Positions 34,336-58,329 of a stretch of 64,000 nucleotides of DNA are shown one piece after another. Origin of the DNA: Eledone cirrhosa (taxonomy: Eukaryota); contig OZ024740.1 of the NCBI GenBank assembly GCA_964016885.1, forward strand, positions 239,506,001-239,570,000, written 5' to 3'. Under the pieces are notes generated by a model. It searched no databases, was not told where the DNA came from, and was given only the letters and a program-made list of their open reading frames with translations. The stretch's first letter is position 1, and each line of letters starts with the position of its first letter. Made by a program: the position numbers and the translations under genes.

Positions 34336-36207
34336 ATGCCCAAGTATTTGTATATTAGATGTAATTACAATAATTATAATTTTGAAGTTATAATATAAAC
34401 GTATAAAAACACTTTCGATATTATATTCGTTATTTTACTTAAGATATTGCCTTATGTGTTTCACAGTATTTTGGCCTTTCATCAGAAGACAATTAATCAC
34501 ATGCTTGCGCTTATGAATAGATTTGGTAGCAGTCACTATTTATGTCAATCACAAACTAGAGCTTATCTGGAATGGCCATTCTAAACTACATAACATGCAT
34601 TCACGTAAAGCCAATACCATGTGTTTCTTTTCTTTCGTGTCATGTGGACTATTGGCTATCGAATATTCTTTCTCGCCATTCTTCTTCAGTATATTTTGGG
34701 ACTTTGTTTTGATTTAGTATTCCCTTCTTTTAAAATGTGTTGTCGTTTTATCCTAATTTAAGTCTGTTACTTCAGTGTAGTTAATTTCTAGTTTGCACAT
34801 GTCATACAACAGATGCGAAATAACCATTCCCAACAAAATTACACAAATCATATTACACACCCCAGGTGTAAAATGAAAATAACATGAGAAACAATGGAAA
34901 ATATCTGACAGCAAGGCAAAATAGATGAAGTACACACATTTCTACATTCCCAATGCACTTGATATGGTACATTAGAACCTAATTTTCTAATAGATATATA
35001 AACTCTAGAGATTATTCATACACACACACATAGACACATATATATGCATACGTACATACACCACACACACACAAGCACACACACACACACGCACGCACTC
35101 AACACGTATATATATATATGATTTAATACATGGTAATTAGGCATAAAGTTTCATAGAATTCTTAAATTTCATCATTTAGTAGGTGAATTCCATTATTGAA
35201 GGAGATCCACTCGTACTAACTATCAATCATCGATTAGATTGAAACTGCTTCCATTTAATAAATTGGAAAACATGTTTGCTCATCTAAAGGAGACTACTCA
35301 TGAAAGGAAAACATTTCCCTTTTAAAGGCATTTCTATAGGAATAAGTATAACATTTAGTGGGTCAGACCTGAAAGCCCAATCAATGTTCCGGGTGAATGT
35401 CATTTAGTCATACCGCTGGTGTTGTAGTAGCTATCAAGTTTGATAAGGGATTGGGCATTCCTTGCATATTATGAGTCTCTGGTCGTCATGCGACTAGAAA
35501 CGAAGGACAAATGTTGCGTTGTGTGGACAGGGTTTGCATAATTCACTTCTATTATCTAGGCCAAAGGTTCTAAACCCATTTCGGCCAAACGCCCCCTTTT
35601 GCCTCTCGAAATCACGAAACGCCCCCTACCCTATTTTTCCATTTTTCAATATACTACTAATTTTGATATCAGTAGATTACTAAAAAATTGATTAACGATA
35701 TTCCAAAGATACCATTGCAGGCAGTTGAAAGTATAAATACATTCCTTGAAAGGAAGTATATAAATTTCAAAAAAAGGAACATAAATGTTCTTTTTTATGA
35801 ATAAGGACCAGTTGAATTTTTTATATTTCCACCAGACGATACCAGCTATTTTGAACATTTATTTATACAAGGAGCAACTCTGTCTATCCAAAGAGTGCTC
35901 TTATCTAGAAGAAAGTGGCAATTGTATTATTTCAAAGCTTTCCAATTTTCCCTTTAATGAAACGGACAGAATAAATGTTGATATCTAACTTGATGTCCCC
36001 TCCGCTTTGTGAGCTTAGAGACCGCGGAAGAGGGTTTTCATGACCACGTAAAGTGGTCATTAGTAAACGGTAAAATATATACAACAAATGAGTAAGTGAA
36101 TTGTGGTAGATGGTTTCCAGTCCAGTCAGACTGCAACTACAAATAAAAAATCGACTTACTTTGACCTCGTTTCAATGGGACCCTTGAGCTTCATGGAGTC
36201 TAGCTAA

Positions 36208-37907
36208 CTATTTGACGTCAGGCTGGATTTTCGTAAGATGTAGCCGGAGATCTCCACGTACAATCACATTGTAGCGGTTGCGAGCCTTACTATGCAGTCT
36301 GGAAACAGCGCCAAACCCCCTCTCGACTAAGTATGAGCTAGGAAAAGGCAAAGCAAATCTCTTAGCCTCTGCATGTAGGAGTGGAAATCGACGCTGAATT
36401 TCCTCTTGCATCCAAAAAGGGGTTCACCTATTTTGGAAAATTTAATTTTGATAATGTCATCTGTCTGAAGTTCAATTAATTCTTCCTGAAATTTAATGTC
36501 CAAATCGTTGACGTTAGCTATGAAGTGATCTGCTATCCACATTGGGGTGTTCATCTGCAAAAGGTCGACAAACCGTTCTCTCATGTTGTCTTGTAGTGCA
36601 TGGAGGTGCGCTGTATAAATTTGGAGTTGGTCATCGCTCACATTGTTTTGAACATTGGCGACACTAGGAAAATTATAGAATTCCCGTCGACAAAGATTCC
36701 TTTCGAAGACATTCAATTTGGCCAGGAATGTTTTCACGGCATTCCTTGCTTTAAACAAGGTGATCTTCTCCCCCTGCAAAGCCATAATGAGGCTATTGCA
36801 TTTGTCGAAGATGTCGGCGAGGTAGGCGCAGTCTTGCCTCACATCGAGGTTTTCTTTATACAGTTCTGTGTTGCGTCCTCGAAGAAACTCAATGATAGAG
36901 TCGAACAGTTCAAAGAAGCGAGTAAGGCACTTGCCCTTTGAAAGCCACCTCACTTCAGTATGAAGGAGCAACTCGACGAATGCTTCGTCATTATCTTCGC
37001 ACAGTTGCCGGAAAATTCGTCCATTGATGGCGTTTGATATAATTGATGACATCAATGGCTATCTGCAAAGACTTGCTCAGCGGCTCACTGAGTTTCTTCG
37101 CAGCCAAGTGTTGTCGATGAATGACACAATGAACAGCAAATACAGATGGATTTCCCTCTTCAGAAAGCCGACCATTGCTCTTGCTCTGTCCGTAGCACTT
37201 GATACAATATTGTTAAGAGGTATCTCTTTTTCTTCGGGGTATCCCTTGACAGATTCAAAGATGGTGGCTAGATTCAGAGTGAAGAGAAGCTCCTCGTGCA
37301 TCTCGTTTTGGTGGGAAAATCACACGTATCCCAGTAGTAAGGACTGATTCCCGGAAAGTGTGCTTTCATCAAGTTTCAAAGCAAATTGTGTTGATTTCAA
37401 GATGTTGCATAATTTTTGTTCAACATTTTCCGCCATTTCGTCGATGCGTCTCCTTATTGAGTCGTTACTCAACGGAATACATTTCAAGGTCTTTAACGGG
37501 TTCTGATGTAGTACTGTTGAAAGAATTTCTGAGATGACAGGAGCTACCAATGTTTCACCCAAGGAATGGCGCTTGCCACACCTTGCGATTATATTGGCAA
37601 TATTGTAAGATGCGACAAGTCCATCAACATTTGAAGCTTCAACTTTTGAAAAGGCAGAAGAAATCAGTGTTGTTTTCTGAAATTGGTCCCTAAGAGACTG
37701 AAAGTATGCTAAATCTTTATATCTCTTATCGGGGTGCCTCACCTCCAGGTGTCTACTCAAACGCGATGGCTTCATCGCCTCATTCGAAAAGGACTCCTTG
37801 CAAATTAAACACATGGGTGACAGGTGGTTCGACGGCGATGGGATGAATCCGAACCGTAAGCAATCAACGCTGTACTGCCTGCATTTTTTCTTAATTGCTG
37901 AGGCCAT
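36208..37907 (-). pseudogene. Buster-type hAT transposase (ZBED5/ZBED8/SCAND3-like), frameshifted
   Basis: CRQYS..FGF...PMCLIC...SNEAMKPSRL.RH...H BED finger, IPLSNDSIRRRIDEMA, LDEST, ATD.A.AMVG, LLHTEVRWLSKGKCL.RF, FPSSYLVERGF. Confidence 0.93.
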
Positions 37908-56573: not shown

Positions 56574-58329
56574 TAAAGAGTTAGCTAAACTCCATGAAGC
56601 TCAAGGGACCCATTGAAACGAGGTCAAAGTAAGTCAATTTTTTATTTGTAGTTGCAGTCTGACTGGACTGGAAACCATCTACTACAATTCACTTACTCAT
56701 TTGTTGTATATATTTTACCGTTTACTAATGAATATACCCTCTTACGTGGTCATGAAAACCCTCTTTTGTTGTTTCTAAGCTCACAAAGCGGAGGGGACAT
56801 CAAGTTAGATATCAACATTTATTCTGTCCGTTTCATTAAAGAGAAAATTGGAAAGCTTTGAAATAATACAATTGCCACTTTCTTCCAGATAAGAGTACTC
56901 TTTGGATAGACAGAGTTGCTCCTTGTATAAATATTTAAAATAGCTGGTATCGTCTGGTGGGAATATAACAACTTCAACTGGTCCTTATTCATAAAAAAGA
57001 ACATTTATGTTCCTTTTTTTGAAATTTATATACTTCCTTTCAAGGAATGTATTTATACTTTCAACTGCCTGCAATGGTATCTTTGGAATATCGTTAATCA
57101 ATTTTTTAGTAATCTACTGATATCAAAATTAGTAGTATATTGAAAAATGGAAAAATAGAGTAGGGGGCGTTTCGTGATTTCGAGAGGCAAAAGGGGGCGT
57201 TTGGCCGAAATGGGTTGAGAACATAGCGAATGTGTTCTTCAAAAGTAACCATCTTTTAGCGTTGTAAAGTTCACATTTCCAGATTCCGTTCCAGCCTGCA
57301 TCGTTTTGCTATCCACCAGTTGGTGCCCCGGCATGACGCAGTCTGATGACTGAAACCATTAAAATGATATATACATACTTACATTCATACATACACACAG
57401 AAACATGATATATATATATGACACCTCGTCCATTCTTATTAAACACACACATATATATATAGTGAGAGAGAGAGAGACAGAGCGAGAGTGTGTGTGTGAG
57501 AGAGAGAGAGAGAGAGAGAGAGAGAGAGAGAGAGAGAGAGAGAGAGAGAGAGAGAGAGAGAGAGAGAGAGAGAGAGAGAGAGAGATTGAAACATAGACGA
57601 TAAATAGATAGATATATCGATAGATAAATAGAATAAATGTCGAGTAGTTAGTAAGTATTTCATATTGAGAACTTGATTAATCTAAATTTTCAAATTTTCC
57701 TGAAGCGCTTCAAGTATATAGTTCTTTTATTGTATTGTTGGAACTGTTTCCTTCAAGAATTTCCATAAAACTCTGTTTGTATTGTTCAGTATATATTTTT
57801 ACTGCACATTCATATTTCTATCTTTGTCTTTCTGGTTTCATTGTACATCGGCCGTCGGCTGTTTGTAGCTGTTTGACGTCAAACTTTTTCATACATAGTA
57901 AATGATAAAGGCTATCCTTAAGGCTACTGTAATGATGAAATATCAACTGTTGTAGTCTTTCCGTTGACTGTCTATGTGATTTGTTATTTGAGTCATGTAA
58001 GATACGAATTGGTAGGGTCGATAGTGTGTCAGACAGCGTACTTGGAGGTATTTCTTTTGATTCTGCATGTTTTTAGTTCAAATTCTAACTGTCAATTAAA
58101 TACTAGTGCCTGCTCTTCCACCAAATCGCTTTCTCACATATCCCCCCCCCCCCCCTCTCTCTCTCTCTCTCTCTCTGTGTCTCTCTCTCTTTCTGCCTCT
58201 CCCTCTGGCTTTCTCTTTCTCTGGAAGAAATAGGCCATGTCCCAAACTGGAGAAAGATGAGCTTACACCAATTTTAAAAATTCGCCGCATGTAACGACAG
58301 TGCCAATACGACTCCATCAGGGGTTCAAG

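Follow-up and report, generated by a model that had tools for sequence, protein, structure and literature searches.

The window, i.e. the whole stretch of 64,000 nucleotides analysed here, contains a palindrome of 21.7 kb. It consists of two decayed copies of the same abundant Buster-type hAT element, placed in opposite orientation on either side of one 8-base copy of the target site (Table 1). At the axis (49012-49047) the sequence reads GTTGAGAACCTTTG-TTCTAGGC-CAAAGGTTCTCAAC, with two ends of the same type, the 3' ends, facing each other over exactly 8 bp. The letters of the axis and of the 8-mer at the left flank are exactly those given in a preliminary description of this DNA, and the mirrored blocks A, B and C were found where that description had placed them, with 91-98% identity between the arms. 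The palindrome axis that it had put at about 49030 is the mirror point only for the order and orientation of the blocks, which are symmetrical with respect to the TIR junction. No single anti-diagonal passes through all blocks: their start and end positions add up to about 92,789, 95,258-95,541 and 100,312, and an axis at 49,030 would require 98,060. The arms are of unequal length, the mirrored part amounts to only about 3.2 kb, and the difference in length consists of large insertions and deletions that are specific to one arm.

Table 1. Transposon copies, target sites, nested elements and mirrored blocks at the locus, in window positions
Feature	Position	Strand	Remarks
Left target-site copy ATCTAGGC	35554..35561	.	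TA at positions 4-5; 7/8 direct match to the central 8-mer
Left copy E1, 13,464 nt	35562..49025	+	Near full-length but dead Buster hAT; TIRs CAAAGGTTCTAAAC ... GTTGAGAACCTTTG
Transposase remnant of E1	36327..37980	-	Broken by stops; open frames 36327-37058 and 37320-37952; whole region deleted in the right arm
Nested LINE-like retroelement	41059..46795	+	Left arm only; RVT_1 E 1.6e-11, zf-RVT E 9.8e-7
Self-palindromic MITE-like insert, 548 nt	47573..48120	.	Left arm only, no counterpart in the right arm
3' TIR of E1, GTTGAGAACCTTTG	49012..49025	+	
Central common 8-mer TTCTAGGC	49026..49033	.	Serves E1 as right and E2 as inner target copy
Right copy E2, 8,189 nt	49034..57222	-	Inverted; deletion derivative of the family of E1
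Nested element with inverted ends of ~400 nt	50177..52652	.	Right arm only
Private deletion junction of E2	56572..56574	.	Equivalent of 36217-38903 removed; 3-nt microhomology
Outer TIR of E2, incomplete, GTTGAGAAC	57214..57222	-	Last 5 nt (CTTTG) missing; no target copy after it
Block A	35567-36216 / 57222-56572	inverted	95.4% identity over 655 nt; first 296 nt 98%
Block B, pair 1	38904-39243 / 56574-56228	inverted	93.4% identity
Block B, pair 2	39314-39944 / 56227-55596	inverted	95.0% identity
Block B, pair 3	39944-40766 / 55361-54492	inverted	91.4% identity
Short microsatellite pair	40981-41063 / 53652-53570	inverted	91.6% identity
Block C	46787-47530 / 53525-52790	inverted	92.8% identity
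Microsatellite-like repeat	48130-48293 / 49963-50126		87% identity; occurs also at other places of the window

The assignment to the Buster group of hAT elements, already proposed from the bare sequence, is borne out by the target sites and the transposase. TA occupies positions 4-5 of the target in 25 of 26 family flanks, which corresponds to the Buster target consensus nnnTAnnn that according to PMC3517528 is unlike the Ac-type consensus, and perfect 8-bp duplications are found at CTTTAAAA (copy L015), CTCTAGAG (copy L023), and around the first copies (E1) of the two junction loci L003 (GTCTAGAG) and L004 (CTCTAAAC). Of 7,999 candidates that were scored against frame P0001 of copy L035, 1,764 match at E <= 1e-5. 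Its best named matches are SCAND3-like (E 2e-171, 53% identity), ZBED8 and ZBED5-like proteins, these carry PF14291, PF27073 and PF27046, and a protein atlas agrees with a Buster-clade homology of the frame. A Pfam search of the transposase frames gave no family and only sub-threshold matches to zf-BED (E 0.007) and DUF659 (E 0.003), and a sequence search of the PDB with the transposase frame gave nothing relevant. Judged from the TA in the target, the 8-bp duplications and the transposase homology, the element is thus a Buster-type hAT. It has the 8-bp duplications with central TA and the short TIRs of the known Buster family, and likewise a transposase, of about 590 aa, that is homologous to the named proteins, but in every copy inspected the reading frame is broken or incomplete, the longest being 537 aa in L035.

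The family is large, with more than 1,000 copies and at least 1,669 candidate matches of block A in the genome. In most of 44 other copies that were fetched, the blocks A, B and C follow each other in the same order, and A-B-C is thus the standard body of the family and not a cargo, as the preliminary description had suggested. It had also seen a second hAT in the BED-finger frame at 36217-38903. Such a nested element was ruled out, since this region is colinear with the full-length copies L017, L014, L020 and L035 and therefore is the family's own transposase region, retained in the left arm only. As the retroelement, the MITE-like piece and the long-TIR element are each confined to one arm, they were not carried into the duplication, contrary to the idea that a MITE and other insertions had moved along. 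There is a practical lesson for annotation in this: the supposed cargo and second hAT are the family's own body, and the entry for the 21.7-kb palindrome should list two copies of a single family and, in addition, the nested insertions that came later.

E1 is colinear with the same four full-length copies over 35562-40440 at about 93% identity and has a private 235-nt deletion at 39944. Its transposase remnant, which is colinear with the 537-aa frame of L035, has a weak zf-BED match (E 0.007) below the Pfam cut-off. The LINE-like retroelement within this copy ends with AATAAA and an (ATCT)n tail at its 3' end and has no counterpart in the right arm. E2 lacks most of the 3' subterminal region of about 450 nt that adjoins the axis, and beyond its incomplete outer end the right flank reads ATAGCGAA, so that the predicted third target copy is absent; the preliminary description had already noted that the expected 8-mer is not visible at the far right, and indeed no TTCTAGGC is found beyond 57222. 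A later insertion that pushed the rest of the E2 TIR and the target copy to the right was considered, but a search that allowed up to 3 mismatches found no CCTTTGTTCTAGGC downstream of 57222. Another candidate, the right arm as a member of a transposing deletion subfamily, was rejected, because the deletion junction of E2 is private among the 40 matches scored out of 796 candidates: the 39 others all end at query positions 83-85 and do not span it.

The central TTCTAGGC agrees with ATCTAGGC of the left flank in 7/8 positions when read as a direct copy. The agreement includes the GGC at positions 6-8, of which the G at position 7 is rare (~0.05), whereas the reverse complement GCCTAGAT agrees with TTCTAGGC in only 4/8 positions, the palindromic CTAG core. 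Two ends of the same type over exactly 8 bp, together with the 7/8 match to the left flank, indicate that the second copy sits in the target site of the first one, and as the central 8-mer is a direct copy and not a reverse complement, this fits an ordinary second insertion and not a sister-chromatid transposition. Both flanks of the locus are essentially unique in the assembly, and no empty or alternative allele was found elsewhere in it. The left flank has a paralogue on contig C13 that is only 75% identical, therefore old and a weak stand-in for the empty site; further on, it can be aligned to the right flank over 57264-57321 (alignment score 17, as compared to 10.9 +/- 1.65 with a maximum of 16 in 200 shuffles). 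As this paralogue aligns with both flanks, the left and the right flank were probably contiguous before the insertion.

A genome-wide search for further TIR-8 bp-TIR junctions, as had been recommended in the preliminary description, showed that the locus does not stand alone. The pattern TIR13-N8-TIR13 occurs at 5 places in the 3.0-Gb genome, the reversed-pattern control at none, and among the family junctions with spacers of 0-30 nt, five out of six have spacers of exactly 8 nt. About 0.029 such junctions are expected on the basis of 1,164 exact TIRs and a sequence-preference factor of 264 (Poisson P ~1.6e-10). With 5 cases against an expectation of about 0.03, the Buster-type hAT has reused resident target copies in this genome far more often than its sequence preference would predict, which points to very local hopping or to an attraction by resident ends. 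The literature that was searched for homing of hAT elements or for target duplications held in common contained nothing relevant. The 8-mers of all five junctions are different, the TTCTAGGC junction occurs once, and the four other junctions lie on other contigs; these four are tandem, and only the junction described here is inverted. At L004 the full three-copy pattern CTCTAAAC-E1-CTCTAAAC-E2-CTATAAAC is present, with a spacer that is identical to the outer target copy of its E1 (8/8) and a third copy, CTATAAAC, that matches in 7/8 positions. The partners at L004 belong to different subfamilies, and the second insertion there was thus independent of the first. Also at L003 the spacer is the outer target copy of its E1 (8/8), and the partners are clearly different family members. 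As the far ends at L002, L003 and L005 are not intact within 10 kb – about 19 nt are missing at L003, and at L002 and L005 no far end was found in this range – the three-copy pattern is confirmed at L004 only.

It is quite likely that the second copy was inserted by ordinary cut-and-paste transposition into the target duplication that had been made by the first. We infer an order of events in which a first Buster copy would have inserted and generated an 8-bp target duplication, and a second copy would then have inserted into this duplication in opposite orientation, so that the 3' ends came to face each other. The donor would likely belong to the first copy's own lineage, for example a copy on the sister chromatid or the homologue that moved over a very short distance. 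Once the two copies were in place, each likely decayed on its own. The left arm would have gained the LINE-like element and the MITE-like piece and lost 235 nt, and the right arm would have lost the transposase region and the 3' subterminal region and gained the long-TIR element; a loss at its outer end would have removed both the last 5 nt of the TIR and the third target copy. For this loss a later small deletion must be assumed, as the third target copy is missing to the right of E2. The empty site predicted by such a double insertion would read ...TTCTATTATCTAGGC, followed by the right-flank sequence.

Transposon dimers of this kind are already known, and the locus is a clear but ordinary example, a clean fossil, readable throughout, of how one transposon inserted into the target duplication of another that was there before. 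For Drosophila melanogaster, double insertion has been given as the explanation of P-element and hobo dimers whose junction contains a single 8-bp target duplication (McGurk & Barbash 2018, PMC5932611). According to that paper, which also cites Tower et al. 1993, a genetic screen has yielded P dimers in head-to-head arrangement. Like in the case described here, exactly one 8-bp target duplication lies between the copies of the Drosophila dimers, the 8-mers differ among dimers, head-to-tail arrangements are more frequent than head-to-head ones (here 4 to 1), and terminal deletions are common at the dimer ends of hobo, which is itself a hAT element (PMC5932611). The present dimer differs in that it belongs to a Buster-type hAT in a 3-Gb genome, with copies of 8-13 kb whose partners are sister copies, and in that it is old (~6% divergence of the arms) and fixed in the assembly, not a recent polymorphism.

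As to the donor, the two arms are sisters in a tree of 27 copies (SH-aLRT 86, UFBoot 94) and, with higher support, in a tree of 39 copies (SH-aLRT 93.6, UFBoot 99), which comprises both arms and 37 of the more than 1,000 other copies, 12 of them added as the best matches to the right arm. In the 39-copy tree the common branch of the arms has a length of 0.0039, and their terminal branches have lengths of 0.027 and 0.034. The arms have 8 exclusive derived sites in common, and other pairs have at most 5. Taken together, the relationships of the sequences contain hints that the second copy may have come from a local donor of the first copy's own lineage. The proposal of the preliminary description, that the element re-inserted in inverted orientation into its own target site, is supported with respect to the target site of the first copy (7/8) and fits the sisterhood of the arms among 39 copies, but it is not supported with respect to the cargo that was supposed to have come with it.

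The double insertion could also have occurred at the same 8 bp with an unrelated donor copy from elsewhere in the genome, and the sisterhood would then be due to gene conversion between the arms, which could produce it, or to a sparse sampling of the family. That unrelated donors do reuse target copies is seen at L003 and L004 with their different partners. The identity between the arms (91-98%) is no higher than that between an arm and other copies (93-96%); in block A the right arm (95%, 1037 bits) is outscored by another copy (1042 bits), and in block B its best matches are other copies with 93-95% identity, the left arm being absent from the 40 matches scored. The two large deletions of the right arm are missing from the left arm as well, and if the right arm had been copied from the left one, they would have to have arisen during or after the event. 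Against this, the arms remained a clade with the support given above although the 12 closest copies of the right arm had been added, and the 8 exclusive sites are scattered over the blocks A, B and C and do not form one tract. An unrelated donor therefore is the less likely origin of the second copy, but one to be reckoned with.

Considerably less likely is a single alternative transposition of the Ac/Ds type, in which, after replication, one sister copy would have contributed its 3' end and the other its 5' end, and both ends together would have inserted into the element's own target copy, so that the inverted dimer arose in one step. The arms are indeed sister copies, one outer end is damaged, which frequently happens to ends in aberrant events, and for Ac the formation of inverted duplications of transposon sequence by alternative transposition is documented (bioRxiv 10.1101/2020.01.07.897926). 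The Ac/Ds products described there, including the 'Ac killer' composite insertions, resemble the present locus as they concern a hAT element with an inverted duplication and 8-bp target duplications. The ends used in those cases belong, however, to two separate elements or to sister copies, re-replication is often involved, and host flank is duplicated, whereas no host DNA is duplicated here. The geometry derived here for such an event would moreover lead to a centre that reads as the reverse complement of the target, where the match is 4/8 as compared to 7/8 for the direct copy, and for this reason the analogy to alternative transposition of Ac/Ds that had been drawn for the locus does not hold. 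Alternative transposition also cannot yield the four other 8-bp junctions, which are tandem or join different subfamilies, and a simpler mechanism that is common to all of them exists.

Palindromes are a known class of artefacts in long-read assemblies, and a chimeric fold-back read or a mis-join at a TIR might produce a structure like this. A fold-back would result in nearly identical arms, though, and the sequences of these arms are 2-9% divergent. They are further set apart by several arm-specific insertions and deletions in the kb range, which are real and had been rightly held against an artefact before. As the junction further consists of two intact TIRs and a spacer that has the exact length of a target duplication and matches the left flank, and as four more 8-bp junctions exist on other contigs, an assembly artefact is extremely unlikely. 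Hardly credible at all is that the 21.7-kb palindrome came to its place in one piece, as a mobile unit of the foldback-like kind: its two outer ends are of the same kind, as expected with long inverted arms, but the TTCTAGGC junction is single in the genome, the outer right TIR is incomplete without a matching outer target duplication, and the left flank forms a target duplication with the centre, so that the left arm is a complete insertion in itself.

Double insertion is regarded as a seed of tandem arrays of transposable elements and of satellites (PMC5932611), and inverted dimers are, by analogy to the Ac killer loci, potential sources of hairpin RNA. It is a speculative and rather improbable idea that the inverted dimer, at the time of its formation, might have been a hairpin-RNA source that helped to silence the Buster family, similar to Mu killer or the maize 'Ac killer', and that the asymmetric deletion on the axis side of the right arm might have allowed its survival as a long palindrome. 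Better grounded than such a role in silencing is the possibility that resident Buster ends actively attract incoming copies, as the exact reuse of target copies exceeds the prediction from sequence preference more than 170-fold.

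The two arms of the locus, 35562-49025 (+) and 49034-57222 (-), are copies of one Buster-type hAT transposon, and all the inverted blocks listed in the preliminary description are present in the window. Besides blocks A, B and C, two short microsatellite-like pieces are mirrored between the arms, and the innermost of them (48130-48280 against 49975-50125) is explained by a satellite-type repeat that is found window-wide. The axis at 49012-49047 reads GTTGAGAACCTTTG TTCTAGGC CAAAGGTTCTCAAC, the left end at 35554-35575 reads ATCTAGGC followed by CAAAGGTTCTAAAC, and the outer right end closes at 57222 with ...GGGTTGAGAAC, 5 nt short of a complete TIR, and ATAGCGAA comes next. 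In both order and orientation the blocks form mirror images, yet they share no common anti-diagonal; the left arm has 13,464 nt, the right arm 8,189 nt, and only about 3.2 kb are mirrored.

Features of the two arms, and repeats of the window
Feature	Position	Arm	Remarks
Block A	35567-36216 vs 57222-56572	both, inverted	95.4% over 655 nt; initial 296 nt 98% identical
Block B	38904-40766 vs 56574-54492	both, inverted	three pieces, 91-95%
Block C	46787-47530 vs 53525-52790	both, inverted	92.8%
LINE-like retroelement	41059-46795	left only	RVT_1, zf-RVT; AATAAA signal, (ATCT)n tail
548-nt palindromic piece	47573-48120	left only	
235-nt deletion	at 39944	left only	
Element with ~400-nt inverted ends	50177-52652	right only	
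Other sequence, ~0.96 kb	between B and C	right only	
3' subterminal region mostly lost	adjoining axis	right only	
125-nt direct repeat	49294-49417 and 49778-49902	right, near axis	98.4% identity
Satellite-type repeat	3003-3162, 27764-28052, 29113-29450, 48101-48511, 49184-49307, 49963-50187, 60118-60310, 61303-61520, 62285-62432		microsatellite-like; many window copies

Target duplications of the family are 8 bp long, with perfect pairs at the family loci L015 and L023 and at the first elements (E1) of the dimeric loci L003 and L004, and 25 of 26 flanks have TA at positions 4-5, which agrees with nnnTAnnn, described as the target consensus of Buster elements (PMC3517528). Of the transposase frames found, that of copy L035 is the longest (537 aa); among 7,999 scored candidates, 1,764 are homologous to it at E <= 1e-5, the best named ones being SCAND3-like (E 2e-171), ZBED8 and ZBED5-like proteins that carry PF14291, PF27073 and PF27046, and a protein atlas comparison was concordant. 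ZBED5 is listed as Buster1 and ZBED7-9 as Buster2-4 (PMC3606216). A Pfam profile search of the transposase frames of the window and L035 gave nothing above threshold. Duplication length, target pattern and Buster-clade homologues together argue for the Buster hAT identity proposed earlier.

The left flank ATCTAGGC matches the central TTCTAGGC in direct orientation at 7 of 8 positions, including a GGC at positions 6-8 whose middle G (position 7) is uncommon in the family. The left arm thus represents a whole insertion flanked by a target duplication of its own, and the right arm adjoins the right-hand target copy. This fits an ordinary two-ended second insertion, in which another element would have transposed into the target duplication made by the first. 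A third target copy is missing beyond the right arm, where it was probably lost together with the 5 nt of the outer TIR in a later small deletion. A paralogue of the left flank on contig C13, 75% identical, is followed by a stretch alignable with the right flank at 57264-57321; the score is 17, compared with 10.9 +/- 1.65 and at most 16 for 200 shuffles. This suggests that both flanks were formerly contiguous to within tens of bases. The Ac/Ds-style alternative transposition named in the preliminary description does not fit: by our derivation, such an event between sister chromatids, with the element's own target reused, would place the target's reverse complement at the axis. The reverse complement agrees at just 4 of the 8 positions, all in the palindromic CTAG core, as against 7 of 8 for the direct copy. 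Ac inverted duplications of such origin are reported to act as silencers in some cases (bioRxiv 10.1101/2020.01.07.897926).

Two facing TIRs 8 nt apart occur at five places genome-wide, and at none with a reversed-pattern control. The five 8-mers all differ (TTCTAGGC in the window, TGTGAGAC, GTCTAGAG, CTCTAAAC and TTCTACAG). Only the window junction joins two 3' ends; L002, L003 and L005 are 3'-to-5' (tandem), and at L004 a 3' end faces a different MITE subfamily. The spacer of L003 equals the outer target copy of its E1 (8/8), and L004 has the complete three-copy pattern CTCTAAAC-E1-CTCTAAAC-E2-CTATAAAC, E2 being its second element; such patterns are the hallmark of a second element inserting into the target duplication of the first. 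From a genome-wide count of 1,164 exact 14-nt TIRs (18 in the control), about 0.029 exact junctions are expected against 5 observed (Poisson P ~1.6e-10), given a sequence-preference factor of 264 from 26 flanks, independent positions and no regional preference. When spacers of 0-30 nt were permitted, one further family junction appeared, so that five of six have exactly 8 nt, and a looser 10-nt TIR core gave four more places with spacers of 14-28 nt, all starting with TTAA. The sole exception among the six, GTTTAAAATTTAAAC at C4:164928188-164928228 (L044/L045; GTTTAAA-A-TTTAAAC, 15 nt), looks like a pair of GTTTAAAC target copies that were joined and changed by one base, as would be expected for a footprint that hAT excision leaves between two elements, and may mark a former trimer.

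Dimers with a single target duplication at the junction have been described for P elements and hobo and explained by double insertion, with insertion preference as the driver, head-to-tail ones being commoner, and head-to-head P dimers were recovered in a screen (PMC5932611). The window dimer is a product of this known kind, an old and decayed one, and a new example in the Buster family. The far 3' end of the second element of L003 (L038, ~5640-5665) stops at ...GGGCATATGC, so that ~19 terminal nt of the TIR are missing, and the outer end of the second partner is thus shortened there as in the window (5 nt); terminal deletions have been reported for hobo dimers as well (PMC5932611).

As for the donor of the second copy, the arms share eight exclusive derived sites and any other pair at most five (11 sequences present in all three blocks), with 58 private sites in the left and 52 in the right arm. 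A maximum-likelihood tree of 27 copies places them as sisters (SH-aLRT 86 / UFBoot 94), and so does a 39-copy tree to which the right arm's 12 best matches were added (93.6 / 99), where their shared branch is 0.0039 and the terminal branches are 0.027 and 0.034. Raw identity does not single them out as mutual closest, the trees sample 37 of more than 1,000 other family copies, and gene conversion between the arms would mimic the sisterhood. The phylogeny favours a donor from the same lineage, which could be a sister-chromatid or homologue copy.

For block A by itself the 3.0-Gb genome gives at least 1,669 candidate matches, and all 40 that were scored are near full-length at 93-96% identity, with the right arm third in rank. 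In most of 44 other family copies fetched for comparison, A, B and C follow in the same order. As the left arm is colinear over 35562-40440 with the full-length copies L017, L014, L020 and L035, its region 36217-38903, which has a weak BED-finger frame on the minus strand and is missing from the right arm, belongs to the family itself as its transposase region, rather than being a second hAT nested in it. The right arm's deletion junction between A and B (56572-56574) has a 3-nt microhomology and is spanned by none of the 39 other scored genomic matches, being private among those, unlike the deletion subfamily without the equivalent of 36920-39609 (L006, L007, L009, L013, L016, L024, L027, L030, L032, L034 and L036), whose breakpoints are identical and which makes up 11 of the 32 copies obtained first (L006-L037), so that this derivative transposed after its deletion arose. 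Since the inserts and deletions are private to each arm, the large inserts being confined to one arm each, and A-B-C is the usual family order, the element was not cargo-loaded when it was duplicated. The earlier observation is thus confirmed, and its interpretation stands only in part, without cargo, second hAT and alternative transposition. Copy L011 differs from both window copies by an additional segment of ~1.2 kb, in which a 298-aa open frame (2851-3744, minus strand) contains a PHD finger (PF00628, E 2.4e-6).

The first open frame of the LINE-like retroelement, 41250-41864 (+), matches the Geminivirus Rep catalytic domain PF00799 below threshold (E 0.0054; 17 bits, cut-off 24), probably by chance. 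The same retroelement occupies this position, immediately upstream of block C, in eight or more other family copies (L016, L012, L009, L013, L021, L032, L042, L044), at 90-94% or 76-79% identity to that of the window. Block C opens with a (TATC)n microsatellite, and the common position suggests either repeated insertion at this microsatellite or a LINE-bearing hAT subfamily.
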